Positions 3,843 to 62,565 of a DNA stretch of 64,000 nucleotides are shown piece by piece. The stretch is taken from IMG/VR virus record IMGVR_UViG_3300014208_000032, positions 1 through 64,000 of that record. One strand, written 5' to 3'. A program made the position numbers and the translations under genes. The DNA comes from a virus. Position 1 is the stretch's first letter, and each line of letters starts with the position of its first letter. The notes under the pieces were generated by a model. The model was not told the DNA's origin. It searched no databases and was given only the letters and a program-made list of their open reading frames with translations.

Positions 3843-4639
3843 TATCCCTCCAAATACATATTGCCACGCAATTTGTATTCTCTTGATTTGGCTCTTTCTG
3901 TCCACTGTTGTGGCAACCCAAGAACTTCAACATCAGCTCTTTGGGCAACTATATTAAACGTAGAATATTCCCAACCTATATTTCCAGAAGGGCGAACATC
4001 CATCACTTCATAAAAAATATATTTATTAGACATTACAACATCGCCATTTTCTATGCTGTCTGTTATATTAGAATAAACAGAATCTCTTATTTCAAGATTG
4101 AAAACTGTTTGCAAAATATTTTTCTCTTCAAAATCTGGAATGTTTCGACTTAAATCATTCTCTCCCGTCAGAATAGAAATCCATCCAGAAAAAGTTGCAA
4201 TTTTATCTCTAACTTTTACTAGAGTGTTGTTTGTAGCAATATCAACTATTTGGGTAGTGCCTCCGACAACCAATAAAATTTGACCATTCAGTTTACTTAT
4301 TTTAGGAATGCCAGAACCATTATATTCAACTGAAAGTATTGCTTTATTCTTATTTCTTAAGTCAGAATGAATAGATACCATTCTTTGAACATTTACTTGA
4401 AACGTAAATTCTTTATCTTCAACTGTCCTATATGGTTCGAGGTTTAAAACATTTCTAAATGAATTATCTAAATGAACTACTTTCATTTTAAAAGGAGGCA
4501 AATAAACACGAGATTTTCTTTCTTCGCCATAAATTGGATGAATTTTTGTTTCTTTTTTGTCCAACTTAAAAACCAAGAGTTCTGGTCCATAAGCTTCAAT
4601 ATAAGAGTCGTTTAAATAACTAACCCAATCAGACAACAT
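3842..4639 (-). CDS. Neck protein (T4 gp14-like)
   Basis: 'IEAYG', 'HPIYGE', 'NGDVV...FYEV' pattern; adjacent to gp13-like gene. Confidence 0.55.
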   Translation of the reverse strand: MLSDWVSYLNDSYIEAYGPELLVFKLDKKETKIHPIYGEERKSRVYLPPFKMKVVHLDNSFRNVLNLEPYRTVEDKEFTFQVNVQRMVSIHSDLRNKNKAILSVEYNGSGIPKISKLNGQILLVVGGTTQIVDIATNNTLVKVRDKIATFSGWISILTGENDLSRNIPDFEEKNILQTVFNLEIRDSVYSNITDSIENGDVVMSNKYIFYEVMDVRPSGNIGWEYSTFNIVAQRADVEVLGLPQQWTERAKSREYKLRGNMYLEG

Positions 4640-5258
4640 TTTCTTTTTCTTCCTCTTTATACCCTAATGCTAAATCTTTGGCATATTTTTTAATGGCAAT
4701 TTGAACAGTTTGTGCAGCAGCTTTTGCTTCTTGGATTCCTAATGTTCCTTTAATAAACTTATATGACTCGTTTCCAGTTGGACCATAGTGAATTGGTGGT
4801 TCTTCAAAAACTTCACTTGCTTTGGCAATAAATGATTTTTTAAACCCCTCGTCATTTCGAACTTTTCTATCAATTTTTTTCAGTTCTTCAAGAGTTTTTT
4901 GTTCGTTTTTTTCTTCAATGGCATTAAACAAATCTTCATAAATTGTTTCAAATTTGCTTAAAGTGGAATCCATTTGTCTTTTTTGAATTCTATATAACTC
5001 ATCATTTTTTACATTGTTTTTTATTTCATTAACAATTTCTTGACTTTCTTTTGGTTTAATGTTCATCATTTTTTCAATACTATTTTTAAAATTTTCAACA
5101 GAATAACCAAGACCTTTGAAAATTAAAGACGCACCCAAAGCAGCGATAGCTCCCAAAGCGCCAACTCCAAGAATTTGCCCAATAAAAGCAGCAGCAACAG
5201 TTAAAACCTCTTCGTTCATTTCTTCTTTTTCTTCTAAGTATTTTTTAAAACTTTTCAT
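4629..5258 (-). CDS. Putative head-internal/ejected protein with MKSFKKYLEE tag and a hydrophobic Gly/Ala segment
   Basis: N-terminus resembles T4 internal protein targeting sequence; RBS GGAG. Confidence 0.5.
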   Translation of the reverse strand: MKSFKKYLEEKEEMNEEVLTVAAAFIGQILGVGALGAIAALGASLIFKGLGYSVENFKNSIEKMMNIKPKESQEIVNEIKNNVKNDELYRIQKRQMDSTLSKFETIYEDLFNAIEEKNEQKTLEELKKIDRKVRNDEGFKKSFIAKASEVFEEPPIHYGPTGNESYKFIKGTLGIQEAKAAAQTVQIAIKKYAKDLALGYKEEEKENVV

Positions 5259-5278
5259 TATTAACTCCTATGTTATCT

Positions 5279-7741: not shown

Positions 7742-7742
7742 T

Positions 7743-9570: not shown

Positions 9571-11001
9571 TTAAAACAAATCAGTTCCAGCTCCAGTTAC
9601 AGTGATTACACCATATTGTTTCTGACCTGCATAATCAGAAGTTCCTGTGATTGTTTTACTTTCAAGAAACTCAAGAGCATACCTTGCAAAAATTCCCTGG
9701 TTTAAGTTCAAGTTACTTACATCTGTTGCACTATAAACATTAAAAGAATAAGGAGCAAAAATTAATCCAGGCATAAATTTACTTCCTTCTGATGGAGTAA
9801 ACCCACAGATTATTTTATCTTCCGTTTCAACTGGATTGATAAATACTTTAATAAACTTGTTAATAATACCGATCTTTTGAATTACAGAATAATACTCTGT
9901 AATTTCTCCTTCAAATTTTTCCATTAAAATAACTGCTTGCATAAATTTTGGTGGAATAACAATGAAGTTTCCAATTCCACACCTAGCAGCAGAACCTATT
10001 GTTGTCAACATTTTTATAATTGTTGTATAAAGTTCATTTGCTGGGTTGTTAATATATTGCATTGTCGTCCAATCTCTCCAAGCAATAGTATCAGTATGAA
10101 TGTTTGTTGCGTTTTTAATTTTATCAATTACATCCTGTTCAATTTCATAGTTTAAAAGAGAGCCAACAACAGCAGAAAGTTCTGGAACTGATTCTTCTTT
10201 TGTTACAGCAGTAAAATCATCAATCAGTTCTTTTGTTAGTTCAACCTTCATTTTTTTAGATTTTACTTGATAAGCTCGTCCAATAAGTTTTGGGGTAACA
10301 TTAACAATTTCAGTTCCATCATAAGATGTGTATGTCAAAACGCCATAATTTGCCTTGTTTATGTTAGACACATCCGTTGCTCCATAAGAAGCAATCACTG
10401 AAACTTTTCCTGGTTTTGAGACAGCAAAAGTGATAATAAGATTTGTATCATCGTAAGTAATTACTAATCCGTTTAATACAATTCCACTATAAGTATACCC
10501 GAGAGCAACAAGAGTTGCTTTTGTGTTTGTATAAACATTTGCACCAGTTCCGGCAGCTACTTTAACAAAAACTCCTGATATTGTTTTTGTTAAGTCATCA
10601 ACTCCGGTATACGCAACACTAAAAGTTGTGTTAGCACCAGCCCCATCATCAACGGTAACAGGGGTGATTGCCGCACTGTAATCCAAGGTTAGATTTGTTG
10701 CCACACCTTTTAAAGAATAATTTGTGTCACCAGTTTCAGATCCAACACCAATTATTCTTTTGGGGCCAGTTTGTTGTTCTGTACCTAATCCGTAAAAAAC
10801 ACCAGAAGGTGATTCAATTTTTCTAACTGATGCGATTTCTGGTAGAAAAGCGTTTTCGAGAGTTACTTTGATAATTCCACCAAGTAAATCTTTTACACCT
10901 TGCTGCCCATTATCAAAATATGTTGGTGCTTCATTAAGCACTTGTTCTCTAATTGAGTTTTCAATTAAATAGTCAAAATTTTTTTTCATTTCAATCTCCA
11001 T
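9571..11001 (-). CDS. Major-capsid paralog / capsid vertex protein (gp24-like); start may be 10989
   Basis: gp23-fold motifs 'IASVRKIESPSGVFY', 'KSKKMK...ELIDD', 'YEIEQDVI', 'GLIFAPY', 'ARY'; cleavage-like 'VLNE/AP'. Confidence 0.75.
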   Translation of the reverse strand: MEIEMKKNFDYLIENSIREQVLNEAPTYFDNGQQGVKDLLGGIIKVTLENAFLPEIASVRKIESPSGVFYGLGTEQQTGPKRIIGVGSETGDTNYSLKGVATNLTLDYSAAITPVTVDDGAGANTTFSVAYTGVDDLTKTISGVFVKVAAGTGANVYTNTKATLVALGYTYSGIVLNGLVITYDDTNLIITFAVSKPGKVSVIASYGATDVSNINKANYGVLTYTSYDGTEIVNVTPKLIGRAYQVKSKKMKVELTKELIDDFTAVTKEESVPELSAVVGSLLNYEIEQDVIDKIKNATNIHTDTIAWRDWTTMQYINNPANELYTTIIKMLTTIGSAARCGIGNFIVIPPKFMQAVILMEKFEGEITEYYSVIQKIGIINKFIKVFINPVETEDKIICGFTPSEGSKFMPGLIFAPYSFNVYSATDVSNLNLNQGIFARYALEFLESKTITGTSDYAGQKQYGVITVTGAGTDLF

Positions 11002-14642: not shown

Positions 14643-16337
14643 TTAAAGAAAGTTCAAGTTAGCAATCTTCAAGCGGGAATAGTAATATTGTCCCCTGCGG
14701 ATCTTGTGAATTCCGTATCGAGAGAAGAACCCTCGAATACTATCAAAGTTCTGAGGATTGGTAACCGTATCACTCATCCACTGAATATAAGGAGCGTAAA
14801 CAACACCGGCACCATATTCAGAAGTATTGGATTTGTATCCCATAAGGATTTCATCAGCACGACCAGAAGGTCTGTTGATATCGCAATAAATCTGCATAGA
14901 ACCGTTATTCAATTCACCAAGTTCCTGAATTTTCATGCTGTTGTTTGTGAAAATATCACCTTCAAAGCCAGGAAGTTGACGAAGCACTGCGCCCATCTGA
15001 GGACCAACAACTGCCCAAGAAGGAACGCCCAATCGGTTATACTGGGCAGAAAGAGCACCAAGTTCAAACATCTTCTGAGAAAGCAACCGATGTCGATCCA
15101 AGAAGTTTCCAGAGGTTCCCTGGATTGTGTCCACGTTATTACTAACAAGAGCTGTGGTAAAGTCAGGGGCGAGAGTTCCTGGGACAGAAGTTCCTGGAAC
15201 AGAAAGTGGATCATTACCCCAAACATGCAATTTATCCAACTGAGAAGGAACGATATTTTCGATAAAGTCAAGCACCTCTCTGTCTGTTTCGTATGCTTGT
15301 TCCATAGAAGCGATTTTCACAAGTTCGGACTCTACGTCAATCTTGTGGTATCTCTGCATATCCTGTTCAGATTCTTTTGTCCATCTGATTTTAAGTTTTC
15401 TTTCTTGTGTTTCAACATTCTCAGATTCAACACTGAATTCCATCTCAGGCATATAAGCAGTAGATTCCTGTTCATAGTGCCAGAATATCATAATCTTTTT
15501 TAGACCATAAAGGCTACCAGCGTTTCCAGTTGTGGAAATATCCACTTCACCAGCAGCTCCACCACTAACAAACTGAAGCAAAGCTTCAACAGTAGGAACC
15601 CTAGATCCATTAATATAAGCAGTAAACCCTTTTCCACCAGCTCTTACACCAGCACTATCAAAACCCTTGTGTGCCCAATCGGTATATTTAACCAAAAAGT
15701 CCTCAGATTTTGCTTCAGCGTCAGCACCAGCCAAAAGACTAAACTCATCAAAGAAAGGAATAATTTTTCCGTGAACATCAGTAACGAGAGTAGCACCAGT
15801 AAGTGCGCCGTTAGCATCGGTTGTTCCAACGAAAGGTCCAAACTTGTGGTTGCTGTAATAGCTAGGAACAGCAGTGGTGTTTCCATCTCCATCAAGATCA
15901 AGGTTAGCACCAGTATATTTCTGGCCAGCAGTGTGCCCATTCTTGGAATTGGAATATTTGTAGTCGATGTAATAAACAACACCAGTTCTAGCATCAATTG
16001 GCTGAGTAGAAACAAGTTTGTTAGTGAAGAGATTAGGCATCACCCTTCTGATGATTGGGAAAAGAACTCTTGGGATTACCTGAGATTTATCAAAGGTGCT
16101 ATAAGTAGAAGCAGGAGCTTCGTTAAGCTGTTCAGTCCCTTCGTTGAGAACATTCTCTTCAAGCCACTTTGATGTAACCTGTCCTTCCTTAACCATGTTG
16201 CCATAGGAATTCTCCAAAAGCATCATTGTATTAAAACGAACACTTTTGTCAGCAATGTCTTCGCAAAGCCACCCCCATCTTGTAGAGAGCACTTCATTAT
16301 ACTGCTCATTAGTCATTCTTTCCATTTTTTCCTCCAT
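14643..16337 (-). CDS. Major capsid protein (T4 gp23-like); start may be 16325
   Basis: 'FPIIRRVMPNL..LVSTQP', 'RKLKIRWT.E..QDM..H.IDVESEL', 'GVVYAPY', 'FSRYG'; cleavage-like 'QLNE/AP'. Confidence 0.95.
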   Translation of the reverse strand: MEEKMERMTNEQYNEVLSTRWGWLCEDIADKSVRFNTMMLLENSYGNMVKEGQVTSKWLEENVLNEGTEQLNEAPASTYSTFDKSQVIPRVLFPIIRRVMPNLFTNKLVSTQPIDARTGVVYYIDYKYSNSKNGHTAGQKYTGANLDLDGDGNTTAVPSYYSNHKFGPFVGTTDANGALTGATLVTDVHGKIIPFFDEFSLLAGADAEAKSEDFLVKYTDWAHKGFDSAGVRAGGKGFTAYINGSRVPTVEALLQFVSGGAAGEVDISTTGNAGSLYGLKKIMIFWHYEQESTAYMPEMEFSVESENVETQERKLKIRWTKESEQDMQRYHKIDVESELVKIASMEQAYETDREVLDFIENIVPSQLDKLHVWGNDPLSVPGTSVPGTLAPDFTTALVSNNVDTIQGTSGNFLDRHRLLSQKMFELGALSAQYNRLGVPSWAVVGPQMGAVLRQLPGFEGDIFTNNSMKIQELGELNNGSMQIYCDINRPSGRADEILMGYKSNTSEYGAGVVYAPYIQWMSDTVTNPQNFDSIRGFFSRYGIHKIRRGQYYYSRLKIANLNFL

Positions 16338-16475: not shown

Positions 16476-17360
16476 TTAACCATTAAGGTGGGATTTCATC
16501 CTGTCTTTAAGGCGATTGACTTTGGCTTTTGGAGCATCTTCTCCAATAACACTTTCTTTTACAACACCCTTACCTTTTTCTTCATCATTCTCGTCGTCTT
16601 CATCTTCTTCATCATCACTTTCTTTTTCTTCATCATCCTCGTCGTCTTCATCTTCTTCATCATCACTTTCTTCGTCTTCATCATCCTCGTCGTCTTCATC
16701 TTCTTTTTTCTTTTTCTTGTCTTTTGTTTTCTTGCTGTATTTAGTGTTGGTTCCAGTTTTAGAAGTTTCCTCTTCTTCGTCACCTTCACCAACATCCTCA
16801 GCACCCTCAGAAAGGCTTTCGATAATATTATAGAATTGTTCGGTTACTTCTTCGGCACTACCTTCATTAACAAGGGTAATAATAAGTCGCTGAGTTTTTC
16901 TATCATAATCAGAAAGAAGTTTTGCAAGAGTTCTGGCTCCTTCTTCAAGTTGCATTTCTTTCTTAATCTTCAAATTTTCCTCACGAAGAATAGAAATTTC
17001 CTCAGAGTAAAGATTTCCACCATAACTTTCGTTAAGAGTAGGGGCAACAAGTTCTTTAATTTTTTCAAGAATCTGAAGTTCTGGATTAGAAGAAACCATT
17101 TCTGAAATAACTTCTGCTTTAATTTCATCTCTCATTTCATTGAGAGCAAGCATCATTTTGTCAGCAAATTCTTCCTTCAATTCTTCTTGATACTTCACGT
17201 TCTCTTCTTCAAGAACCTGGATCAATTTCTGTTTTTCGTTATCAAATTCCTCGTTGAGTTCGTTGATAACCTCTTCTTTCCAAGATTTGATGTGCTCACG
17301 AATTTGTTCCTCTTCGTTCAACTCCAATTCTTTATTCAAAGCATCTTCTTTTTTTGTCAT
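16476..17360 (-). CDS. Prohead scaffolding protein (gp22-like) with acidic tandem repeats
   Basis: Glu-rich coiled coil just upstream of MCP; many LxE sites. Confidence 0.75.
   Translation of the reverse strand: MTKKEDALNKELELNEEEQIREHIKSWKEEVINELNEEFDNEKQKLIQVLEEENVKYQEELKEEFADKMMLALNEMRDEIKAEVISEMVSSNPELQILEKIKELVAPTLNESYGGNLYSEEISILREENLKIKKEMQLEEGARTLAKLLSDYDRKTQRLIITLVNEGSAEEVTEQFYNIIESLSEGAEDVGEGDEEEETSKTGTNTKYSKKTKDKKKKKEDEDDEDDEDEESDDEEDEDDEDDEEKESDDEEDEDDENDEEKGKGVVKESVIGEDAPKAKVNRLKDRMKSHLNG
16580..16706. repeat. Imperfect tandem repeat encoding (ESDDEEDEDDEDDE)n
   Basis: About 3 copies of tcatcnTCGTCGTCTTCATCTTCTT. Confidence 0.8.
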
Positions 17361-18178: not shown

Positions 18179-19801
18179 TTAGAACAATCCTTTTACAATG
18201 TCAGAAATTTTAACTTCTTTTTCATTAAGATAATCAAAACTTTCACCTTCCATAACAAATTCTGGTCTTCCAAAATCACCAGCGGACGGATCAAAAACAA
18301 CATCAATTGCTTTTAATCTCAATCCACTAGTTACTTCTACTAGGTTTTTCCCAAGCTGTCCGGTGTATGGTTTTGTGTTTCCTAAAGCTCTTGTTGAAAC
18401 CCCGAGGTGAATACCTTCTGACATCAACTGACGAAGTTTTCTACCTTGGTCTGTATTAAGAACCTCCATTTCACCAACAACAGCGCCATCTTCCATGAGT
18501 TCTAATCTTGTTATTTTGTGAGATATTTTATCAACGTTGATTTTGGGGGAATTTCCTGTCCAAAAAGATTTTCCGTTTTGTTTCATATAAAAATTTCCAT
18601 TAGGAACAGTAATACAATAAACGTTTCCATCATGGTCTTTTTTTTCTATTTTAAGAAATCTTTCATCAAGGTAAATACCTTTTGTTGTAGAAAGATTTAA
18701 CTGATAAAGAGTTGATTTATTTTCCGCTTCAATTAAGTGGTCAGCAAACATATAATCTTCTGTTGTATTTATTTCTGTCCAATTTCCACTTCCTCCACAT
18801 TTAATGACTAATTCATGTAAGTCCTCAATCAATCTCTTAGAAACAGAAAAAACGTTTATTCTGTTTCCTCCATCCATTCCTCTTCGATCTCTTCCATCAC
18901 CCTTAACAAACCACTCTACTAATTCTTCAAGATAGGGAGCATCAAGTTGTTTTAGTTCAAGTGGAATATATTTAGCATAGCAATTTCCTAATGGCCTTAA
19001 AAAATCAGCAAATGCTTTAGAACTAAAATTAAATCTAATTAGAACATTATCTCTCCTTTTTTGATGATATTCTTTCATGTCAAAAGGAAGCCTACTAAAT
19101 AACTCCCTAATCTCATCTGCTGTAGTCCCATCGTTTTGTGAAATAGAAATTAGATTCTTCTCTTTTGAAACAAATCCCTCAGAGAGATATATTCCCATAA
19201 AAGACATTAGATCTTTTGTGTTAAACTCAATCCCAGAAATAGTTATTTTTTCGCTCGTTTCTGTTGACCAGTTTCCTAGTTTTATTATTTTATGTTTGTT
19301 ATATTTATTTCTATTTTCAAATATTTCCCCAACAGTAACTATTTCTCTTTTTCCATATCTATTTTCTAAATAAAATCTATGAGAACCAGTAAAATCGGAT
19401 GATATGTTTTTTCCATTAAAAGAATAAATATCCCCTTTCCAATACTCATTTATAATTGTTTGTATTGGTTGATAAACAATATCATTGTTTTCATCAAGAG
19501 TTGCTACTTCATCACCGATTTTACAATCGAGAAACTCTTTCCATCCTTCTTTTGCTAAGATGGAGAAATCGCTAACCCCGACACACGCAGGGTGATCGAG
19601 TTCACCTACCAGACCATTTCTTGAAATTAAATCTTGAACCGACTCAACCATTTCTTTTAAAATTGCAAATGGATAAACTCTTCCGTTTTTATTGGGAATG
19701 TCTGCTTTTGAAAAAACACCACGAATAACAAATCTTTTATCCTCGTTTTCTGTTAGTTGATATTCAAGAGGACTAAAATCTTCTAAAAATTTTTCACTCA
19801 T
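18179..19801 (-). CDS. Prohead protease (T4 gp21-like) with intein
   Basis: 'N.NGRVYP', 'GELDHP', 'SHKI', 'GVSTRALG', 'IDVVFDPS'. Confidence 0.93.
   Translation of the reverse strand: MSEKFLEDFSPLEYQLTENEDKRFVIRGVFSKADIPNKNGRVYPFAILKEMVESVQDLISRNGLVGELDHPACVGVSDFSILAKEGWKEFLDCKIGDEVATLDENNDIVYQPIQTIINEYWKGDIYSFNGKNISSDFTGSHRFYLENRYGKREIVTVGEIFENRNKYNKHKIIKLGNWSTETSEKITISGIEFNTKDLMSFMGIYLSEGFVSKEKNLISISQNDGTTADEIRELFSRLPFDMKEYHQKRRDNVLIRFNFSSKAFADFLRPLGNCYAKYIPLELKQLDAPYLEELVEWFVKGDGRDRRGMDGGNRINVFSVSKRLIEDLHELVIKCGGSGNWTEINTTEDYMFADHLIEAENKSTLYQLNLSTTKGIYLDERFLKIEKKDHDGNVYCITVPNGNFYMKQNGKSFWTGNSPKINVDKISHKITRLELMEDGAVVGEMEVLNTDQGRKLRQLMSEGIHLGVSTRALGNTKPYTGQLGKNLVEVTSGLRLKAIDVVFDPSAGDFGRPEFVMEGESFDYLNEKEVKISDIVKGLF
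18551..19585 (-). mobile_element. Intein (345 aa, C73-N417) with LAGLIDADG endonuclease
   Basis: Begins 'CVGVSDFSILAKEGWK', block B 'FTGSHRF', 'FMGIYLSEG' and 'WFVKGDG' LAGLIDADG motifs, ends 'VYCITVPNGNFY..NGKSFWTGN' followed by Ser. Confidence 0.92.
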
Positions 19802-19890: not shown

Positions 19891-21036
19891 TTAACTAATA
19901 TATTCGTTAGAACTTTCGTAAATATTTTTACCAAGAATAATAGAAATTGCTTCTTTTACTTCTTCAACAGGAGTTCCTTCATCTTTTTTGGATGAAAGTT
20001 TAGCAGCAAGTTTATCAAGTTTTGCTTTAATTTTTTCATCTTCAACTTTTCCAGAAAGAGTAGTAAGTTCATCTGCAATTTTCTGTAATTCATCGGGCGT
20101 AAGTGTTGGGGCTGGTTCTTCGGCAGTTTCACCATCTGTTGGAGCTTCAGTTTCAGCGGCATCTTCCTCAGCTTCGGTAATATAATCAGGTTTAACTGAA
20201 TTAAATTCACCTTCTTTAAGAAGTTTTTCAACTTTTGTGGAAATAATATTCATACTGTCTCGAAGATCTTTATTCATAAGAACTGCTTTCCCAAGAACAA
20301 TTTTTCTTTCTGCTTTATCGAGAGAAAAAAGAGCAGGAAAAGATTCGAACAAATCAATGAAGTAAGAATCATCTTTATTTTCAACAAGTTCTTTACTTGC
20401 TTCTGCAAGAGCTTTCTTAAAGTCATCTTGTTTCCAAAGATTTTTTGCCTTATCTTTATTAGAAGATCCAACAGTTTTTTTAGATTCGGTAGGAATTAAA
20501 GAAACAGATACATCTTCATTAAAAGAAAAGAACTTAATTTTATTAAGTGGTTTGGTTGCAATTCTAGTAGCGTATTTCTGCACAAATCCCTCGTTAATAA
20601 TATCACTTCTTTTTACTTCGTTTAGTGAAGCATAATCAGATGTTTCTTCAAAAGATTTTCTTGACATAGCATCGTGAATGGTTTCAGTGATATACCTATC
20701 TTTTGAAAGAATGTTTTTCTTATAAGAAGAAAGAACATCTTCTAAAATACCTGTATCAAAAAAATCTTTTACACTTTCTTTAAGAGAGGTTGTCTCATCG
20801 ACAATTGCCAACTCTTCAAAGTTTTTGAAAGAAACAGTATAGTTTTTTCTATTTATTTCCCATTTTGCAACAAAAAACTTTCCAGTTGTATGTTCAAAAA
20901 GGTTTACAGCATCCTCAAAAACAGAAACAAGCGCAGCATTTGCACTTTCGTTCACGATATTCCCAATAATTTTTTGAACATTTTCGTTATTGAAAACGTT
21001 AGCATTCTCAAACTGAGCGGCTGTCATTATTTTCAT
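19891..21036 (-). CDS. Putative prohead core/internal protein
   Basis: Between portal and protease; strong RBS AAGGAG; acidic linker following 'YITE'. Confidence 0.45.
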   Translation of the reverse strand: MKIMTAAQFENANVFNNENVQKIIGNIVNESANAALVSVFEDAVNLFEHTTGKFFVAKWEINRKNYTVSFKNFEELAIVDETTSLKESVKDFFDTGILEDVLSSYKKNILSKDRYITETIHDAMSRKSFEETSDYASLNEVKRSDIINEGFVQKYATRIATKPLNKIKFFSFNEDVSVSLIPTESKKTVGSSNKDKAKNLWKQDDFKKALAEASKELVENKDDSYFIDLFESFPALFSLDKAERKIVLGKAVLMNKDLRDSMNIISTKVEKLLKEGEFNSVKPDYITEAEEDAAETEAPTDGETAEEPAPTLTPDELQKIADELTTLSGKVEDEKIKAKLDKLAAKLSSKKDEGTPVEEVKEAISIILGKNIYESSNEYIS

Positions 21037-21064
21037 TATTTAATCTCCTTAGAATTTTCTAATA

Positions 21065-21505
21065 TTAACTTTGTCGGTTGTCAATTTTTACAATTTTATG
21101 AACACCTTTAAAAAGCCTTTTCACATTTCCTTCCACTAAATCATTCAATGTTAAATGAACTTCTATGTCTTTATAAAATTTATCTTTGATTTCATCTTCA
21201 AAAGAAAGGTTTTCACAAACTATTTTTTCACCACTTATGCTTTTAATTCTAAGAATGTCCCCTCTCTTCTTTTCTTTATAAAAATCATAGATAGGGCTAT
21301 TTTCTGTTAGTGCTCGTTTTTTATCTTTTTTTGAAAGAGCTAGGGGTTTTGTTAATTCTTTATTTTTTATTAGAATGTTCTTTTCTTCTCTCGGCGTATT
21401 TGCTGTTGGATAAATACTCCGTATTGTTTCGAGAAATTGTCCTTCTTTTAAATCAAGTATTTCCTCTTTGATTTCTTCCAATAAAGAAATTAAACTATTA
21501 TTCAT
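21065..21505 (-). CDS. Hypothetical protein
   Basis: ORF overlapping the portal stop. Confidence 0.6.
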   Translation of the reverse strand: MNNSLISLLEEIKEEILDLKEGQFLETIRSIYPTANTPREEKNILIKNKELTKPLALSKKDKKRALTENSPIYDFYKEKKRGDILRIKSISGEKIVCENLSFEDEIKDKFYKDIEVHLTLNDLVEGNVKRLFKGVHKIVKIDNRQS

Positions 21506-26065: not shown

Positions 26066-26353
26066 TTATCTTCTATGTTTAAAAAGTTCAAGTTGAGATA
26101 ATCTGTGATGTGCAACTGCCTCTGGGGAAAGTTTTTTGTCACCTTTTTCTTTTCTGATTTTATTAACATATTGTGTGTCAATATAACCTTTTATTTTTCC
26201 CTTCTCATCTTTTATTATAAGATAAAGAATTCCGCCTTCACTTTCTCCTTGTCTTTCTTTCCAGTCATCTTTTTCTTTAGAAGTTGGTTTAACAATTTCT
26301 TCATTAAGAACCTCTTCTTTTAGCAATTCATTTACCCTGTCTTTAAAATTCAT
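26066..26353 (-). CDS. Hypothetical protein (tagged N-terminus ...VLNE)
   Basis: ATGA coupling, RBS GGAG. Confidence 0.55.
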   Translation of the reverse strand: MNFKDRVNELLKEEVLNEEIVKPTSKEKDDWKERQGESEGGILYLIIKDEKGKIKGYIDTQYVNKIRKEKGDKKLSPEAVAHHRLSQLELFKHRR

Positions 26354-27363
26354 TTCCTGTTCTCCTTTAATATTGTTAAAAATCCAAATTTCTCTGGTAT
26401 TAAATCTGCTTCTGTATAACTCTTACCTTTATCTCTGAAATTAATCTTTATCTTTTGATTGGCATCTCTTATTTTAGACATAAATTCTCCAACATATCTA
26501 TTCCAATTTCTAAGATTTTCTTTTGTGTTAATATTTGATTTAGAAATTCCTGGGTGGTGCTTTTCTGCAAATCTCTTTAAAAAATCTTGGCTATTAACCA
26601 TTTTTGAAAAAGAAACTCTATTTAATTTATTTTCCATTAGATCACTCACGATATTTTGAATATTAGCATTTTGTTCTGCTGGTTCTAAAAAATAATTATT
26701 AGAATTTGTTTCTATGTTTTTGTTTTTATAAAGTCCCGTATTATGTTTTAAATTATCTTTTCCAATATAGGATGTTTTTTTTATTCTGGAATAATCTAAC
26801 ATATGAACCAATTCGTGTTTTAATATACGCCTGATTTCTGTTTTTTCTTTTTCTTTGTGAATATATAATATATTATTTTTTATGTTTATTTTTATAAAAC
26901 TTTTTGTATCATCAACGGATGGTAAAATGACGCTCATATCTTTTTGATATGTTTCCTTAGAAGAAACTGTTGCGTAATTATAGGGTTCTTTGTTTTCTAT
27001 TTTTCTATCATCGAGTTCTCCATAAATATTAATATATGGTTTAAATATGACGTAGAATTTTTTTTTCTTAAACTCTTCTATATCATCTTTAGTTTTAAAG
27101 TTATTATCTTTTATAAAAGTATTCAAGAGAATCAAAATTTTGTCTGTAATATCTATTGTTTTTATTTTATTTCCAATTGAGTTTTTTATTGTTTTTTCAA
27201 GATTTACTTTATAAGATTTATTTTTTTTTGGATCGAACAAAGTTGGTATAAAATTAAAGTCAGTTATATTATTTTTTAGCCAATCTAAATACTCATTTAG
27301 AATATATCTTGATAAAGATGTTGTTTCATAAACTGCTTCAAACAAATAAGTAAAATCTTTCAT
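26350..27363 (-). CDS. Putative zincin-like metallopeptidase (HExxH)
   Basis: 'ILKHELVHMLD' plus downstream 'YFLEPAEQNA'; N-terminus MKDFTYLFE. Confidence 0.55.
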   Translation of the reverse strand: MKDFTYLFEAVYETTSLSRYILNEYLDWLKNNITDFNFIPTLFDPKKNKSYKVNLEKTIKNSIGNKIKTIDITDKILILLNTFIKDNNFKTKDDIEEFKKKKFYVIFKPYINIYGELDDRKIENKEPYNYATVSSKETYQKDMSVILPSVDDTKSFIKINIKNNILYIHKEKEKTEIRRILKHELVHMLDYSRIKKTSYIGKDNLKHNTGLYKNKNIETNSNNYFLEPAEQNANIQNIVSDLMENKLNRVSFSKMVNSQDFLKRFAEKHHPGISKSNINTKENLRNWNRYVGEFMSKIRDANQKIKINFRDKGKSYTEADLIPEKFGFLTILKENRK

Positions 27364-46845: not shown

Positions 46846-47679
46846 ATGAAAAGCTTTAAAGAACATTTACAAAGAAAATTAGACGAAAACGTATTAGATC
46901 CTATTAATAAAACAAAATCAAAAGAACTTTGGAGTACATCCGGTAATCTTCTTCCAGACGCTAAGAGAACGCTTTTGACGAACTTTTACTCCTGGTGGGA
47001 TAAGTTTGGGTTTGAACGCAAAGATATAAAAAAAATGCTTATCCTGGGCAGTATAACGGGCTTTCAATACAATGAAGCTTCAGATATTGATGTTAATGTT
47101 GTGGTTAATCTTTCTAAAGAAAAAATATCTTCTGTTTATAAATTATTACCAGGAAATGTTAAGATTGGGAAACATCCTTGTAATTATTATCTTACAGCAG
47201 ATGAATATGATGCTGGAAAAGCAGACGGGGTTTATAACGTAGTAAAAGATGTTTGGGAAAAAGAAGTAAAAAAAATAGACCCAAAAATTGATAACAGTTA
47301 TGTTCTTGAAGTTACTAAATTTTTTATGGACGGAATTGATGGGCGAATTGCTGAATATGAGAGAGATAAGAAAGAACTTGATATGTTTTATCAATATCTT
47401 AAAGACGCAGATCTTGAAGTTAATAAAAATGATTTAGAAAAAAGTATAGCTCAAAAAAAAGGCGAGATCGAAGCTGATATTCAGTCGCTAGTTATTGGTT
47501 ATCATGTTATCAAAGCTTTTAGATGGGAAGCATTTGTAAAAGATGCTAAACCAATAGAATTACAAATTCAAATAAAAAGCCCTAACCTTACGTTGAACAA
47601 TTTAATTTATAAAACACTAGAAAGGTTTGGATATTTTGATAAACTCCACTCCGTTTTGGAAAAAGAAGGAAAACTATGA
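46846..47679 (+). CDS. Pol beta-superfamily nucleotidyltransferase (MKSFKEHL..LDE tag)
   Basis: 'ILGSITGFQY..ASDIDVNVV' GS..DxD motif. Confidence 0.75.
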   Translation: MKSFKEHLQRKLDENVLDPINKTKSKELWSTSGNLLPDAKRTLLTNFYSWWDKFGFERKDIKKMLILGSITGFQYNEASDIDVNVVVNLSKEKISSVYKLLPGNVKIGKHPCNYYLTADEYDAGKADGVYNVVKDVWEKEVKKIDPKIDNSYVLEVTKFFMDGIDGRIAEYERDKKELDMFYQYLKDADLEVNKNDLEKSIAQKKGEIEADIQSLVIGYHVIKAFRWEAFVKDAKPIELQIQIKSPNLTLNNLIYKTLERFGYFDKLHSVLEKEGKL

Positions 47680-48326
47680 AATTTGAAGATCTTATTAATG
47701 AGATGGAATCTATGAGTTATGACAGCGGACACGACAGAAGCATTGCCGATGTTTCTACTCATGCCACCCATCATACTGCCCCACCAGAGGCAAGTATTAA
47801 TTCAAGAAGTTTTAAAGATTTTGAAAACTTTACAGATAGAGTTTCAGATAAAGATATGCATCTTGATATGAATAATGATAAAAAAATTGATACAGATGAA
47901 TTAAAAAGATATGTCAACTGGACTGCTAAAAAATTAGGAGTTCCGCAAGAGATTGCTTTGGCTGTTGTGGAAAGAGAAAGCAATTGGAATCAGAATGATG
48001 TTTCCAGAAACAGAAACGGAACAAGAGATGTGGGATTAATGCAACTAAATTCCAGTAATAGAAAATATTTTGAGGATAAGTTTTGGACACCAGATCACCA
48101 TGGAATAAAATTTAATCCAATGAACCCAGAACATAATGTTGAGGTTGGTATTAAATATTTAAAATGGCTAAATACTTATTTTGATGGAGATTGGGGTAAA
48201 GCAATTATGGGATATAATGCCGGTCCAGGAAACGTAAAAAGAGATACGATTCCTGATTCTACCAGAAATTATTTAAAATTTGTTATGGATTTTGTTGGCG
48301 ACAAAGCAAAGAAATATTTTGGATAA
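47676..48326 (+). CDS. Lytic transglycosylase (SLT) with EF-hand-like linker
   Basis: 'AVVERESNW', 'GLMQLN', 'NVEVGIKYL', 'YNAGPG'; 'DMNNDKKIDTDEL'. Confidence 0.9.
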   Translation: MKFEDLINEMESMSYDSGHDRSIADVSTHATHHTAPPEASINSRSFKDFENFTDRVSDKDMHLDMNNDKKIDTDELKRYVNWTAKKLGVPQEIALAVVERESNWNQNDVSRNRNGTRDVGLMQLNSSNRKYFEDKFWTPDHHGIKFNPMNPEHNVEVGIKYLKWLNTYFDGDWGKAIMGYNAGPGNVKRDTIPDSTRNYLKFVMDFVGDKAKKYFG

Positions 48327-52300: not shown

Positions 52301-52444
52301 TCTATTGATGGAGTAGGGAGTTCTGTAATCAATTTTCTCTAAAAATTCCAATCCGGGTATTATAGCATTAAGATCTTTGATTCCACTTCCGGTTGTTTTC
52401 TTTTTAAACATTATATTATTTCCTTTTGTTATTCCCACTGGCAT
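49382..52444 (-). CDS. Tail fibre/baseplate protein with a 7-blade beta-propeller repeat
   Basis: 1020 aa; 41-aa repeats; shares 'IATRE.TP.D' module with the 40048 fibre. Confidence 0.75.
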   Translation of the reverse strand: MPVGITKGNNIMFKKKTTGSGIKDLNAIIPGLEFLEKIDYRTPYSINRPIENINYNVGKIIDFLEQSAVFNFSGGIFKNTIFDIDLSLEIVNGIQFLYLSPGAGVSRKTEIDIARADLVGKVIPNNVFFNNYIDVDLFSRILNKIIFPTNDIEFGNYNFEVKLTANGKFKARSFIDGTYDYFIGTGVDDLTNWEDDTVGFAKSFELIVYINASILRSNLYLNKIFTAFSGDVSLIPSLGIIPIPVAGKYLISTNELGEVVLVSTTWAGAPDPSVFTNDFYFVEITGTPGTYVLANTYDQRDFFARETQFNAGNVANTIVSKENGDGSITTLFNLFDDPDSRIQFWTGTGIGASKIMEITPTSVDIVVATTNVNVNSLNSTDPILTLNKNGTALSTNMAGIEIQRGIGLDSYYIVFDEETDTFKVGTSVDGIVKTSLQAIATRENTPLDGGVAIWNAATNRFDTASIGNSVVQALPVDMGVAVWDSTTNKLETRSDVKIGLVIDMLSPPTKTSLATLPSFTNKDAHLYNNKVYITNAFGVNFVIMDLSDNSFSTISGLTSMITSTSQIYNGKLYLPQSGGVNMDIVDLSNNSVTTISTLTAFTKNTSQIYNGKLYLPQSGGVNMDIVDLSNNSVTTISTLSNHNRYTSQIYNGKLYLPHSSILTGGNIADVVDLSNNSVTTLTLISNHNRFTSQIYNGKLYLPQSGGVNMDIVDLSNNSVTTISTLSSNDKYTSHIYNGKLYLPLRNSTNMDIVELSTNSKTTENILTNVNHDISFINLNKIYVPQYSGTNIDIVLLSNEYEKTTIDTATTINNTLTVTGTITGTTIKSTNLVGGNNTTLLGSIPYQSNVDVTTLLSPNTTTVKKFLTETGTGTNGAAPVWGNILDETGVTTGDVFYYDTTTSELKRIYGMRYNISEQIVEVKKIRVISNLEIPTPIITPAMSFTTLVGGSQIVLADANAPPGASTRVIQQETSPGVWGANIGLNTGITAITSTSYTFRAYYLNTEYAADSLYHTITGVAT
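50095..50880. repeat. 123-bp tandem repeats (one 135-bp unit)
   Basis: 'TGTGGTAAATAAAGTTTTCCATTATAAAT' core or close variants at 50214, 50337, 50472, 50595 and 50718. Confidence 0.9.
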
Positions 52445-52875
52445 TATAGATTTTCCTTGTCTTTTTTAATTAAATCTTGTATTTCTGTCTTTCCAAAAAA
52501 CCAGTCGTTTTCGTTTTTTGTTTTAAGATTTTTGACATACATTTTATTATATCTTCTCAAAAGAGGGAGAGCATCGGGGAAAAAATATTTAATTCTTTTA
52601 TATTTTTCTTCTTTATTAACAGATAACATTCTGGCGAAACTATCAATTTCATCAATTGCTCTCATTGCGTATTTTTTATTATCATAATAATTTACATTAA
52701 AACCAAGAATATCACTTCTTTTGCCATAGGTTTTTTGGTGAGGTTGTCCTGGATATTCAAAATCCAATACTTTTACTTTTGGGTTAGGATCTTGCTTAAA
52801 ATTGTCGTATTTGAATTTAACAAGTACTGCATCTTCGCTGAGAACAATTTCTTCATATAATTCTTGAAACTTCAT
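52444..52875 (-). CDS. Possible DNA end-protector (T4 gp2-like), MKFQELYEE tag
   Basis: 'FKY....DP.P', 'ILGFNVNY', 'LRRYN' pattern. Confidence 0.4.
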   Translation of the reverse strand: MKFQELYEEIVLSEDAVLVKFKYDNFKQDPNPKVKVLDFEYPGQPHQKTYGKRSDILGFNVNYYDNKKYAMRAIDEIDSFARMLSVNKEEKYKRIKYFFPDALPLLRRYNKMYVKNLKTKNENDWFFGKTEIQDLIKKDKENL

Positions 52876-53010
52876 AATATTATCTTTTCAAGTGAACTAA
52901 TTACCCATTAAAGACAGGTAATATTTTTGTTTCATAGACAAAACTTGTTTTTTGAATAAACAAAACCCTTGGTTTTTATCTCCACAAACTTATATTCGGG
53001 TTATTCCAAC
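52872..53010 (-). ncRNA. Predicted TnpB omega/reRNA (scaffold plus ~20-nt guide)
   Basis: IS200/605-type right end: hairpin TTACCTGT-cttta-ATGGGTAA (G-U pairs) then TTAGTTCAC (ends 52892); guide TTGAAAAGATAATATTATGA. Confidence 0.55.
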
Positions 53011-58570: not shown

Positions 58571-58996
58571 ATGAACATATTAGAATTGGCAAAACAAAAA
58601 CAGGATAGTATTGATGACAAAAGATTAAAAATTATTAAAGAAAGAGAAGAGGAAGAACAAAAAGAGAGAAATGATTGTAATATTTTTTTTGAAAAAACAT
58701 TGAAGATATTAAAAGAACTTGAAATAGATGCAGTAAGTCCAAATAATTATTGGGAAGGTATAAATATATCGCTAACAAAAGATATAGATATTAAAATAGG
58801 TGTTATTAGTAGTAGCTATATAACGATTAGATCTTATTTAAAAGAATTTCATTATAATTATGATGTAGAAACAAATTTTGTTTACATAAAACCAAATGCG
58901 GAAGGTTTTATAGACGAAAGTAATAAAAGAATAATTCAATATAGTGCTGAATTTTTGGAAAAAGTGTTTAAAAAATTAATTTCTGACTATAATTAA
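58571..58996 (+). CDS. Hypothetical protein
   Basis: 141-aa ORF, last of the plus-strand island. Confidence 0.6.
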   Translation: MNILELAKQKQDSIDDKRLKIIKEREEEEQKERNDCNIFFEKTLKILKELEIDAVSPNNYWEGINISLTKDIDIKIGVISSSYITIRSYLKEFHYNYDVETNFVYIKPNAEGFIDESNKRIIQYSAEFLEKVFKKLISDYN

Positions 58997-59547
58997 CTAG
59001 TTATTTTTTTTCTTTTCTTAATCTTATCTCTTATTTTTCTAAATAAAGCAATACCAGCGGCGAGAGCAAGCGTTCCGCCGCCAATAGCAGTAGCAACTCC
59101 TGTGTCAAACATCATAGGAGAACTATTATTATTGGGTATTCCACCAGAAGCAATAGTTTCCAACCTAGAAAGAGTTGCGTCAGGAAAGTCCCATCCGTTG
59201 TTTTCTGCACCTTTAATCTTGCTAATATATTTATCCAATTCTTTTGTTAATTCGTTTTTATCAACATAAGTTTTATCCAATCCTTCAATATTTCTAACTG
59301 CACCACTTCTCATAATTCCAATATCAAATGGTAAAAAACTTTCATAAAAATCTTTAGTAAAATTATTCTTAATATATTCAGCAAAATTGTTATCATTTTT
59401 TACAATCTCTGCAATTTTATCTTTTGAAAACGTAAACAAATTAAGAAACAACAAATCACTTTCAATGTCAAAATTGTTTGTATTAACATAACTCTCGTTA
59501 AGAGTTCTTCCCTCAATTCTTAAAAGGATTTGTTGTTTATAATTCAT
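58993..59547 (-). CDS. Hypothetical protein with C-terminal Gly/Ala TM (tag ends TLNE)
   Basis: 'GVATAIGGGTLALAAGIALF' followed by basic tail. Confidence 0.6.
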   Translation of the reverse strand: MNYKQQILLRIEGRTLNESYVNTNNFDIESDLLFLNLFTFSKDKIAEIVKNDNNFAEYIKNNFTKDFYESFLPFDIGIMRSGAVRNIEGLDKTYVDKNELTKELDKYISKIKGAENNGWDFPDATLSRLETIASGGIPNNNSSPMMFDTGVATAIGGGTLALAAGIALFRKIRDKIKKRKKITS

Positions 59548-62165
59548 TATATTTTCTCCGTCACTGTCATTTCTTTTTCTTTAATAGAAGCAATATCTGC
59601 ATCTGTTAAATTGCCAGAGATTATCCAATTCTTATCTGGTGCATTAAATCTTGCTTTGTAAATATTTTTCAACCAATCTTTATTAGGAAATGTTTTCCCA
59701 CCAATTAAATAGGTTTTATTAGCAGATTTTACTTCAGCAATATTCTTAGCAGCATTAGAAACAGCAGATTGAGCTGCTACTTTTGGAATTTCTTTGTCAG
59801 GAGCTGGTTCAAATTTCTTCATATTCATTTCATAAGAAGCATCAGTTTCTTTATATGTAGGAGTAGATCCTTTAAGAACTTCTTGAAGTTTCTTGTTAAC
59901 AATAGCAACAATTCTTTTGATAATAACTTTAGGAACAGCAGACAATACATCTTTAATTTCAGTTTTTGGTAGATTTTTTGCTTTAATGTCTTCAAGTTGT
60001 TTTTTAAGTGGTTCGACATTAATTCCTCTTGCTTCTAATTTTTTAATTCTAACTTCCATATCTTTTTCTTTGTCAGATATTTGTCTCACGTTTTTAGGGG
60101 CAAGAGTTGGCATAGACAATTTAGAAATTGTAACAATTGGTTTGTGTCCACCAACTTGTTTTTCAACCTTCTCAATACCAAAATCAAATAAAGTTTTATC
60201 ATAACCATATTTACTATGAATATCTCTAATTTCTTTAGAAGTATCACTTTTTATTTCTTGAATAGCTTGTTTACCAATTTCTACTAAATTAATTCTACTG
60301 GCAGTTTCTTTATCAAGATCACTATTAACAGCAAATTGAATCATATCATTCCAACTTCTAAAATAGACAGGAAATCTTCCAAATTCTTTATCCTTCAATA
60401 CAGGAGGAAGAAATCTGTTCATATCTTTAGGACTTTCTGCCCCCATTAATACAGAAGAAACCTTAACCATATTGGAAGTTTCAGGGTTCATTTGTTTTTC
60501 AATCTGCCCTTTTAATTTTTCTCTTCCAGTTGCTATCTCTGCTTTATAACTAGACGCATCATTTGCATCATTTCTTCTTCCAGCTTTATCAATAAAATTA
60601 AGATCTTTCTTTCTTGCTTGAAGAGCTTCTTTCATTCCTTTTAAATCTTTGGCATAAAGAGGTTTAGTAAATTCTTTTATCTTATAATCTTCCCAGCCAG
60701 ATTTATTTGCAAGAGTTTCGATTTCTTTAGATTTAGATTGCCAATTTCCTGATAAAAGTTTCTCAATATCTGTAATAACTTTTTCTTCATGAAATGTAGA
60801 ACCTTGTAGAGCTTTTCTTTTTGTTGTTTTTGATAATTTAGAAAGTGATTCTGCATCCCTGTTTTTATAGAAAGAAGATTCAGCTTTAATTAATTCTTGT
60901 CCTTTTTTAGAAAACATTGTATTAAGAAAACTAATCAAGGTTGGTTTAGCATTTCTAATGAGATATTCTGTTATTCCAGTAGTTCTTGTGTTGGCAGATC
61001 CGTGAACCATGTCTGGCTTAATCATTTTGGAAATAATAGAATTAGATATATGAGCAAAGTTTTCTTTAATACTATCATCCATTTTCACAAGTTTTTCAAG
61101 AGAAGTAAAATCTGCACTATCAACTCTTTTCAAATCAGATATAAATTTTTGATCAGCAATATTTTGTGTATGAAATGTAGCAAGTCGAGATGTGTCTGAT
61201 TTATAAACTTGCTTCATGTCTTTAGAATGTTTGAAATAATCATTAGTAATTTTAGCTAGGTTGTTTACTTGTTGAGGAGTGGCAGTATATTTCTTTTGTT
61301 CTAAAAACTTATTAATAGCTTCTTGAACACTTTCTTTTCCTTCTACTGCTTTAATAAACTCATCAAAAAGCCTATCATAAACCTCTCTATTCCTCATAGA
61401 AGTATCAATTGGTCTTGTATTATAATCAGTTGATCTTGCATAATCTTTTTCAATATTATTTAGTTCGGTATATTTTAAAGCTTTAAGCATTTCAATTTTT
61501 TTATCAAAAGATTTCTCTTCATAAACTTTTTTCAATTCTGCATATAATTGATCTTTTTTTAAACTTCTATCAAAATTAGCAGTAAGATCAGACATTCCAA
61601 CAGGAGATCCGCCACCAGCAATGCTTCTTAAATCTTTTCTTAAATCATTATACATACTTACAAGAGCAGATTTGTATTTTTGATTTTTACCTTTTATGAC
61701 ATCAAGTTTTCCTTGGGTTTGTTTTCCAAGAACTCCCTTGATATCAAAAATCTCATCAAGTTTATTTTGAATTACTTTTCTAATAGCAGAGGAAGAAGAA
61801 TCCGATCCATGTCTTACAGATCCGATAGATTGTTTAATGTCTTTCTTTTCGTGGTGGTCAGAAACCCAATAATCTTTATTACCAAGAACTTTATCTGTTT
61901 CATCTCCAAAATCTCCAAAATCAACAACAACACCTTTTTGCCCTTTTTTTAAATTCCAAACATCTTTAGCGTTTGCTCCATATTGAACAGGGACTAGAAC
62001 AATTTGTTCTGGCTTAACTCCTTGCTTGAGTAATTGATTGTAAGCCATAGTGGCAGAAGAAATTCCGTCTAAATCAGTGTGATGGAGTAATTTTATTGAT
62101 TTCTCTGTTCCTTTTTTTCCTAAGTTAATACCACTTTCTGTTATGTATTCTTTAAAACTTTTCAT
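59547..62165 (-). CDS. DHH-family phosphoesterase with large insertions (MKSFKEYITE tag)
   Basis: 'HHTDLDGISS', 'VVVDFG', 'SDHH', DHHA1-like 'GGH'. Confidence 0.75.
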   Translation of the reverse strand: MKSFKEYITESGINLGKKGTEKSIKLLHHTDLDGISSATMAYNQLLKQGVKPEQIVLVPVQYGANAKDVWNLKKGQKGVVVDFGDFGDETDKVLGNKDYWVSDHHEKKDIKQSIGSVRHGSDSSSSAIRKVIQNKLDEIFDIKGVLGKQTQGKLDVIKGKNQKYKSALVSMYNDLRKDLRSIAGGGSPVGMSDLTANFDRSLKKDQLYAELKKVYEEKSFDKKIEMLKALKYTELNNIEKDYARSTDYNTRPIDTSMRNREVYDRLFDEFIKAVEGKESVQEAINKFLEQKKYTATPQQVNNLAKITNDYFKHSKDMKQVYKSDTSRLATFHTQNIADQKFISDLKRVDSADFTSLEKLVKMDDSIKENFAHISNSIISKMIKPDMVHGSANTRTTGITEYLIRNAKPTLISFLNTMFSKKGQELIKAESSFYKNRDAESLSKLSKTTKRKALQGSTFHEEKVITDIEKLLSGNWQSKSKEIETLANKSGWEDYKIKEFTKPLYAKDLKGMKEALQARKKDLNFIDKAGRRNDANDASSYKAEIATGREKLKGQIEKQMNPETSNMVKVSSVLMGAESPKDMNRFLPPVLKDKEFGRFPVYFRSWNDMIQFAVNSDLDKETASRINLVEIGKQAIQEIKSDTSKEIRDIHSKYGYDKTLFDFGIEKVEKQVGGHKPIVTISKLSMPTLAPKNVRQISDKEKDMEVRIKKLEARGINVEPLKKQLEDIKAKNLPKTEIKDVLSAVPKVIIKRIVAIVNKKLQEVLKGSTPTYKETDASYEMNMKKFEPAPDKEIPKVAAQSAVSNAAKNIAEVKSANKTYLIGGKTFPNKDWLKNIYKARFNAPDKNWIISGNLTDADIASIKEKEMTVTEKI

Positions 62166-62190
62166 TATTTTCCCTTTTATTATATTAACT

Positions 62191-62565
62191 TTATTCGCTA
62201 CTATAAACTACAAATTTCTTTTTATCTTTCTCGTCTATGAAATCAATATTGTTTATTTTTTTAAATCCAATTGAATTATGTAAATTTATACTTCTATCAT
62301 TATCATTACTAATTACAGAATAAAATAATCCAAATTTTTTCTTAGCTTCTAATAAAACTAATTTTGCTAATCCTTGTCTTCTAAATTCTTTATCTATTTG
62401 TATAAATATTTCCTTCTTGTTTTTTAAGACATCATTAGTCAATATATCAAAATAACCAATTATTTTATTGTCATAGATAATATCATAATTATCTCTATCT
62501 TTTTCTTTCTTTGTTAGTTTAAATATTATTGTTTTATTTTCATTCAATAAATCAAATAGTTTCAT
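62191..62565 (-). CDS. GNAT acetyltransferase (start MKLFDLLNE at 62565)
   Basis: 'EFRRQGLAK' acetyl-CoA motif A, 'N.RSINLH..IGF'. Confidence 0.8.
   Translation of the reverse strand: MKLFDLLNENKTIIFKLTKKEKDRDNYDIIYDNKIIGYFDILTNDVLKNKKEIFIQIDKEFRRQGLAKLVLLEAKKKFGLFYSVISNDNDRSINLHNSIGFKKINNIDFIDEKDKKKFVVYSSE

Follow-up and report, generated by a model that had tools for sequence, protein, structure and literature searches.

The capsid targeting sequence (CTS) of the internal proteins of phage T4 is said to have been described by Mullaney & Black in 1996. Mutagenesis has assigned its residues 4 and 7 to targeting and its residues 8 and 10 to processing (PMC9026906), the T-even internal proteins are already known to be diverse and to share only the conserved CTS (PMC3012670), and the CTS as a means by which T4-like phages load various proteins is in print (PMC9026906). 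Here we analyse the first 64 kb (positions 1 to 64,000, the window) of IMG/VR record IMGVR_UViG_3300014208_000032, a single-contig phage genome of 159,813 bp and 30% G+C, in which numerous proteins begin with a CTS-like leader, hereafter the tag. These proteins are likely to be targeted to the prohead core and then cleaved, giving rise to packaged and probably ejected proteins as in T4.

As in T4 IPI, IPII, IPIII and Alt (whose CTS is reviewed in PMC9026906 and PMC3012670), the leader comprises about 10 amino acids (aa) and at most 19; its positions 4 and 7 are hydrophobic, and positions 8-10 read [LI]xE. The likeness extends to the protease, which is of the gp21 family, to the homologues of gp23 and gp24, which carry a site of the same type, and to the cargo, whose members are unrelated and have the tag alone in common; for an enzyme as cargo Alt provides the precedent. 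The differences concern the extent and nature of the set: there are 12 strict and about 20 loose candidates here as against five pattern matches in T4, the cargo is mostly larger and comprises enzyme folds (SLT, Pol-beta nucleotidyltransferase (NTase), HAD, DHH and GNAT) and membrane proteins rather than the small basic proteins of T4, and the genes are scattered over the late region, whereas those of T4 lie at few loci. The preferred site here is L-N/T-E, the phage is very distant (its major capsid protein (MCP) being about 23% identical), and its set is known from genes alone.

Other described systems resemble this one in part. In phiKZ, 201phi2-1 and SPN3US many head-internal proteins are cut after Glu by a gp21-related protease, and the cargo includes enzymes, for example the virion RNA polymerase, as well as membrane-spanning ejection proteins (SPN3US gp47) (PMC5694885). 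The combination of membrane proteins and enzymes, here only predicted to be head-internal, with a gp21-related protease is shared with the present phage, but the propeptides of phiKZ and SPN3US are mostly longer than 100 aa with the motif S/A/G-x-E, whereas the leaders here are of T4 length and end in [LIV]-x-E. In phage P1 an N-terminal signal of DarB suffices for packaging an enzyme into the head, but, unlike the tagged proteins, the Dar proteins show no common consensus for this signal (PMC9024508). The T7 gp16/PHROG 342 group offers a parallel in an internal virion lytic transglycosylase for envelope passage, although T7 gp16 differs in being a large core protein that lacks a leader of the CTS type. 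Finally, phages and conjugative elements inject polyvalent proteins, for which a role as early-phase effectors entering together with the DNA has been proposed (Iyer et al. 2017, PMC5512222). Their catalytic repertoire, with zincin-like peptidase, GNAT, Pol-beta NTase and muramidase/lysozyme domains, overlaps with that found here. They are, however, single large polypeptides with 2-15 effector domains. As each activity in the present phage resides in a separate small protein with its own tag, the relationship is one of functional analogy rather than membership.

The leader motif and its distribution

The tag was sought with the regular expression ^M.{1,2}[FLIYMW]..[FYLIWHM][LIVYFM].E, which was built from the T4 CTS literature, was untuned to this genome and permits a form one residue shorter. 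Its matches, with hydrophobic residues at 4 and 7 and [LIV]xE at 8-10, are called strict, and longer or deviating leaders loose. Gene starts were taken from a longest-ORF (open reading frame) caller, identical in all controls. Genome-wide, 12 of 199 ORFs match as against 1.05 expected from the protein-internal frequency (binomial p 1.3e-9). Chance resemblance within a low-complexity, Lys/Glu/Leu-rich proteome, whose composition favours K, E, L, I, F and N, might be thought to yield such leaders; however, when residues 2-15 were shuffled within each protein the mean was 1.3 matches and the maximum 6, so that none of 2000 trials reached 12. The enrichment was replicated independently in 59 related IMG/VR loci, in which 28 of 851 ORFs match as against 5.1 expected (p 1e-12), and together these results effectively refute chance as the source of the motif.

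Motif starts show a sharp maximum at protein positions 3 and 4 (six each, versus 0-2 at other offsets), and the tripeptide LNE is enriched 5.5-fold in the first 20 residues (13 versus 2.4 expected, p 1e-6). Leaders span 9-19 residues and carry sites of the form [LIV]-x-E, mostly L-N/T-E. At least 12 proteins have strict tags; with looser leaders the candidates number about 16 in the window and about 20 genome-wide. The twelve N-termini quoted in the original prediction, and its three leaders ending in LNE, were all found at the gene starts that it gave.

Comparison with the T4 record NC_000866, in which IPII and IPIII begin MKTYQEFIAE/A and IPI begins MKTFKEF...ITE/A (the slash marks the cleavage position, putative in the present phage), bears out the proposed resemblance to the CTS. 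The tags of the present phage include MKSFKEFLNE, MKSFKEYITE, MKSFKKYLEE and MKSFKEHLQRKLDE. Identity with IPI extends to six of the first seven residues, and tags of the MKSFKEFLNE type have F4 and F/Y7. The same regular expression and ORF caller applied to T4 matched five of 275 ORFs (1.07 expected), namely IPII, IPIII, gp24, gp2 and gp61.1. As these include IPII, IPIII and gp24, the last with a short N-terminal propeptide that gp21 removes (PMC5694885), the expression recovers proven substrates; the present phage has more than twice T4's number of matches. The other two T4 proteins are the DNA-end protector gp2 (NC_000866 76061-76885, minus strand), which begins MAIFQIINE, and gp61.1 (NC_000866 18966-19130, minus strand), a hypothetical 54-aa protein adjoining the primase gene, whose start MKTFKEFIKE is a perfect CTS-like decapeptide.

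All-against-all BLASTP of the mature parts (residue 21 to end) of 23 tagged or tag-like proteins gave no significant pair. The tag is thus a portable module, and to call its bearers a family, as the original prediction does, is inaccurate, since they have nothing but the tag in common; descent as a paralogous family is ruled out by the same comparison. Each tagged protein has one recognisable domain at most, and one or two N-terminal sites as against the many in the scaffold candidate described below.

The tag is widely distributed among viral contigs. A nucleotide scan of IMG/VR with ATG AAA WSN TTY AAR GAR TTY, corresponding to MK[S/T/R]FKEF starts, recovered at least 119 loci or contigs with such starts, nearly all of them true ORF starts and belonging to very diverse proteins. 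Among the matches listed, 50 of 110 continue as [LIVM]xE, and 8 of the 16 on contigs of at least 37 kb are accompanied by a gene for Peptidase_S77, including both contigs estimated to be complete. In two loci (L197 and L198) a block is syntenic with 26-33 kb of the window, and the corresponding genes are tagged.

The tagged proteins and their relatives

The tagged proteins of the window are given below in order; the late box is the AAG[AT]TAA element considered in the next section, with distances in nucleotides (nt) upstream of the gene.

4629..5258, minus strand: 209-aa protein; tag MKSFKKYLEE, acidic linker, second site MNE/E, Gly/Ala-rich transmembrane helix; late box at 21 nt
26066..26353, minus strand: 95-aa protein; longer leader MNFKDRVNE LLKE EVLNE/E, loose, with no strict match
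26350..27363, minus strand: 337-aa protein; loose tag MKDFTYLFE/A; HELVH motif; late box abutting the ATG
27457..27894, minus strand: 145-aa acidic protein; leader MSIKSQILYNLRASLNE/N, loose
27896..28219, minus strand: 107-aa protein; tag MKFFDLIKE/N, strict; late box at 22 nt
29535..30191, minus strand: 218-aa protein; tag MSKILNIVKE/L, strict
31064..32743, minus strand: 559-aa protein; tag MKSFKEFLNE/M
32743..33399, minus strand: 218-aa HAD-type phosphatase; tag MTIKDLLNE/E, followed by the catalytic motif DIDNT; late box at 25 nt
33912..34448, plus strand: 178-aa basic protein; leader MDFKEKVLE LLE/G, loose; late box at 32 nt
36380..36841, plus strand: 153-aa protein; tag MATLREIFEE TLNE/E, strict; late box at 44 nt
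46846..47679, plus strand: 277-aa Pol-beta-fold NTase; leader MKSFKEHLQRKLDE/NVLDP; late box abutting the ATG
47676..48326, plus strand: 216-aa lytic transglycosylase; tag MKFEDLINE/M, low-complexity linker of about 70 aa, SLT domain at aa 80-191
52444..52875, minus strand: 143-aa protein; tag MKFQELYEE, strict; late box abutting the ATG
58993..59547, minus strand: 184-aa protein; leader MNYKQQILLRIEGRTLNE/S, loose; C-terminal Gly/Ala transmembrane helix
59547..62165, minus strand: 872-aa protein; tag MKSFKEYITE/S; N-terminal DHH-family phosphoesterase domain (weak match); late box at 26 nt
62191..62565, minus strand: 124-aa GNAT acetyltransferase; tag MKLFDLLNE/N; late box abutting the ATG

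The strongest comparative case for the tag site is made by the NTase family. In 44 of 46 homologues a variable and otherwise unconserved leader of 3-53 aa ends in xxE directly before [SN]hhD ([SN]VLDP), and the P3 residue of the junction is L, I, V, M or F in 43 of these 44. The NTase assignment itself is supported by the invariant residues G68, S69, D80 and D82 (GS...DxD), by matches of the homologues to PF01909/PF18765, and by an AF2 model (pLDDT 84) whose top Foldseek matches, weak as they are (best E 1.8e-3), are all Pol-beta-fold NTases. In this model the leader scores below 50, and residues 4-13 form a low-confidence helix apart from the well-folded core. A relative of 73% identity is encoded on a 33.6-kb contig. 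Many homologues (P0127-P0151) possess, in place of the MKSF-type tag, a different conserved leader of 30-53 aa, M-N-E-A-E-D-F-L-x-x-[ML]-G-[IV]-K-[IV]-K..., which suggests a second leader type or the swapping of leaders on one cargo.

The remaining enzyme assignments differ in strength. The SLT domain is strongly supported (Pfam SLT 7e-24; PHROG 342, 'internal virion protein with endolysin domain', 7.6e-15). GNAT (Pfam Acetyltransf_1, 28.8 bits, cut-off 20.7) and HAD (Pfam DUF2608, 28.8 bits, cut-off 22.6, with Acid_phosphat_B) are adequately so, and the start of the GNAT gene is fixed by the late box abutting its ATG at 62565. The DHH assignment of the original prediction is weak: the Pfam DHH match (1.5e-5, 25.7 bits) falls under the cut-off of 28.1, PF01368 is precomputed for the protein and its single homologue (68%), and structural leads to RecJ/DHH in the ESM Atlas are likewise weak. 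Its zincin in turn comes down to one HELVH motif in the 337-aa protein, a member of a large viral family lacking a Pfam entry, for which the ESM Atlas gives weak metallopeptidase leads; a zincin-like peptidase is possible on this motif. Searches of PDB sequences with the DHH, NTase and 559-aa proteins returned nothing useful.

Retention of the leader among relatives is not confined to the NTases. Nine orthologues of the 209-aa membrane protein, whose gene lies in a conserved neck/head cluster, keep the tag (for instance MKSFKNYIDE, MELKDYLEE, MDNFKDYILE and MKSFNEYLFE), and a second LNE, FNE or LDE site is kept directly before the transmembrane helix. In five full-length orthologues of the HAD phosphatase the N-terminal helix is retained and ends in [IV]xE or RE (MKLFEAYDIVNE, MTLAEAYRIVTE), while the match to a sixth is N-terminally truncated or mis-called. 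The relative of the DHH protein in locus L036 begins MNFDYLTE/TG, and the gene in L197/L198 syntenic with 29535..30191 begins MATLKSIVREIILE. The 559-aa protein found no relative but itself among 1.84 billion representative proteins, and no match in PDB, Pfam or PHROGs. In four related loci (L021, L027, L046 and L050) a tagged protein of 530-583 aa (M(K)xLDE[LI]INE), with no detectable similarity to the 559-aa protein, adjoins the HAD gene; these proteins may be its fast-evolving positional equivalents.

The late-promoter box and the tagged genes

The original prediction had named equal frequency in early genes as the outcome that would speak against it. The matches are instead concentrated in the structural/late part of the genome, with 11 of 110 ORFs in 0-110 kb as against 1 of 89 in the replication/early part at 110-160 kb (p 0.013). 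The single early-part match, at 157.6 kb, has a late box and lies at the contig end adjoining structural genes. An AAG[AT]TAA box, which is also found upstream of the sheath, protease and terminase genes, is located within 70 nt upstream of 9 of the 12 tagged genes as against 41 of 187 untagged ones (p 2.6e-4). The three tagged genes without a box each lie directly behind another gene on the same strand, and for two of the three, at 31064-32743 and 47676-48326, that preceding gene is itself tagged and has a late box. Position and late box thus suggest that the tagged genes are expressed late.

These features bear on a second explanation, in which the shared N-terminus is unrelated to capsids and is a generic amphipathic helix, or a nucleotide feature favouring translation of late, often leaderless, AT-rich mRNAs. 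The genome's 30% G+C, the frequency of Lys (AAA) at codon 2, the abutment of the late box on the ATG in some tagged genes and the occurrence of the motif outside the late structural genes in T4 gp61.1 would all accord with it. However, the signal is lost when the N-terminal residues are shuffled, the conservation across relatives is at the level of the amino-acid pattern with different codons, the motif terminates in the very site that is conserved in the MCP, and the tag co-occurs with S77 proteases. We therefore regard this explanation as improbable. Its more specific form, the tag as a by-product of leaderless translation, is rejected: the late box abuts the ATG in only 3 of the 12 strict matches, tags also occur behind ordinary Shine-Dalgarno leaders, and many late genes with an abutting box are untagged.

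The box itself, as AAG[AT]TAAT, precedes many late genes throughout the genome (for example at window positions 46835, 52886, 62576, 27374 and 43721) and falls into two classes, one that begins exactly 11 nt ahead of the ATG, lacks a Shine-Dalgarno sequence and looks leaderless, the other lying 20-45 nt upstream and followed by a Shine-Dalgarno sequence. Within the tag-rich block, the gene at 28867-29535 (minus strand) encodes an untagged 222-aa protein with a weak Sigma70_r2 match (E 1.3e-3), and is conserved beside a gene for a 61-67-aa zinc-ribbon protein in L197 and L198; it may encode a late sigma factor of the gp55 type, by which the late box would be recognised. In view of this match the 26-33 kb block does not consist purely of virion genes. 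Two TnpB/OrfB-like genes, at window 53001-54152 (minus strand; MGLIIKALKVRIYP...) and genome 123949-125208 (minus strand; MGTILKTLKIRIYP...), have a late box 12-13 nt before each ATG.

Prohead protease, putative cleavage sites and the probable fate of the cargo

The window encodes a T4-type head module, including the portal (PHROG 213, 1e-69), the large terminase and the tail sheath. The closest deposited phage capsid proteins are 23-28% identical to the MCP, while those of a large clade of uncultured phages are 41-46% identical; a single-sequence MCP scan of viral contigs gave no match, and no cultured relative of the phage was found. The components bearing on cleavage are the following.

18179..19801, minus strand: prohead protease of the T4 gp21 family (Peptidase_S77; PF03420 3.9e-15, 56 bits, cut-off 27)
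14643..16337, minus strand: MCP of the gp23 family (Pfam Gp23 1.7e-45); propeptide site EQLNE/AP at aa 70-76, junction 74/75
9571..11001, minus strand: capsid paralogue, gp24-like vertex protein (Pfam Gp23 1.8e-24); VLNE/AP at aa 21-26, junction 24/25
16476..17360, minus strand: scaffold candidate in the gp22 position between protease and MCP; 294-aa acidic coiled-coil with 21 [LIV]xE sites
19891..21505, minus strand: two conserved genes, 381 aa and 146 aa, between portal and protease; 23 to 30 orthologues

Both EQLNE/AP and VLNE/AP are present as had been proposed, so the MCP and its paralogue carry the LxE site of the tags. In the MCP the site lies about 20 residues before the conserved RRVMPNL, and among more than 100 homologues [LI][NT]E/AP is nearly invariant, with E73 and A74 invariant in alignment A1. 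The protease gene contains a LAGLIDADG intein of about 340 aa directly after GELDHPA, which divides the S77 match into two stretches and itself matches LAGLIDADG_3 and Intein_splicing. The intein recurs in L006, L048 and L025, is split in L022 and is absent in L019 (about 200 aa), and alignments with the intein-less relatives, which have about 200 aa, run across the junction. The scaffold candidate has homologues in 49 related loci and no Pfam family match. In T4, small core proteins are encoded between portal and protease; at the same place in the present phage, the 381-aa gene has a conserved VNE/S(S/A)NA site near aa 30.

Taken with the leaders, these components suggest the following course of events. 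An amphipathic leader of 9-19 residues, with the consensus M-K-S/x-F-K-E-F/Y-L/I-x-E or a form one residue shorter, would bind the scaffolding core during prohead assembly, and the gp21-family serine protease would cut after the Glu of [LIV]-x-E, as it would at the same kind of site in the MCP, the vertex paralogue and the scaffold. The mature cargo would then be retained inside the head alongside the DNA and most likely exit with it at infection. The transglycosylase and the two single-pass membrane proteins would probably serve in envelope passage, by analogy with T7 gp16 and SPN3US gp47 (PMC5694885), and the other enzymes in early takeover or counter-defence.

A third explanation accepts targeting and cleavage but holds that the cargo acts only in the assembling head (in assembly, maturation or DNA condensation) or is degraded and expelled in the manner of scaffold fragments, and is not delivered to the next host as effectors. 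T4 gp67, gp68 and gp22 are core proteins cut by the same protease to fragments that leave the head (PMC9026906), the products of the 381-aa and 146-aa genes probably behave in the same way, and for several of the small tagged proteins no enzymatic function is predicted. On the other hand, SLT, GNAT, NTase and phosphatase activities have no obvious role within the prohead, the tagged proteins have one or two N-terminal sites, unlike the many in the scaffold, and T4 CTS cargo, foreign enzymes included, is retained in the head and injected (PMC9026906; PMC3012670). We consider this explanation unlikely, but less so than a tag unrelated to capsids.

Several points weigh against packaging and ejection of the tagged set. 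The system is known from genes alone in this phage and its close relatives. As an intein interrupts the protease gene, splicing must be assumed, and the scaffold is identified by position and composition only. Gene starts were crudely called, several loose leaders may be ordinary N-terminal helices, and the regular expression is not fully specific, since in T4 it matches gp2 and gp61.1 too. It also matches one ORF at 157.6 kb, though a late box is present there. Finally, the conserved E-S-V-L-D-P of the NTase family could in part be a structural feature of the mature fold.

Packaging, cleavage, ejection and a role of the cargo in the host are what we infer from the sequences, and prohead-core targeting followed by cleavage remains the probable explanation of the tag. 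The interpretation given in the original prediction stands as regards its CTS-like tags, gp21-type protease, shared capsid site and unrelated late proteins including enzymes, and is weakened in its zincin and DHH assignments as well as in the notion of a family. Its description of the cargo as a host-takeover or anti-defence kit would follow by analogy with T4 IPI, IPIII and Alt and with injected polyvalent proteins: GmrSD is blocked by T4 IPI, and on some hosts IPIII is required (PMC3012670, PMC9391042).

Such a mechanism was known before, from T4. The novelty lies in the size of the set and its enzymatic character, in the almost unchanged tag of a very distant lineage and in the family-wide protease site of the NTases. 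It is conceivable, though we put it forward only tentatively, that the T4 capsid-targeting decapeptide is an ancient portable label, more strongly conserved across the whole T4-like superfamily than even the capsid protein (from T4 to groundwater phages, at about 23% MCP identity), and that this lineage uses it to load a 'disaggregated polyvalent protein' made up of at least a dozen separate enzymes, which would be injected to act in counter-defence within the first minute and would include an NTase family with [LIVMF]xE at 43 of 44 junctions.

As injected proteins act before phage gene expression, they are prime candidates for counter-defence, and the conserved NTase, HAD, DHH and GNAT proteins have activities that could be assayed against nucleotide-signalling or toxin-based defences, with about a dozen candidates in this genome. 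The tag is nearly identical in T4 and a very distant relative, which suggests that these leaders could be tested in T4 itself and that viromes can be searched for the tag. There it would provide a means of listing, from sequence, candidate injected proteins of uncultured T4-like phages.

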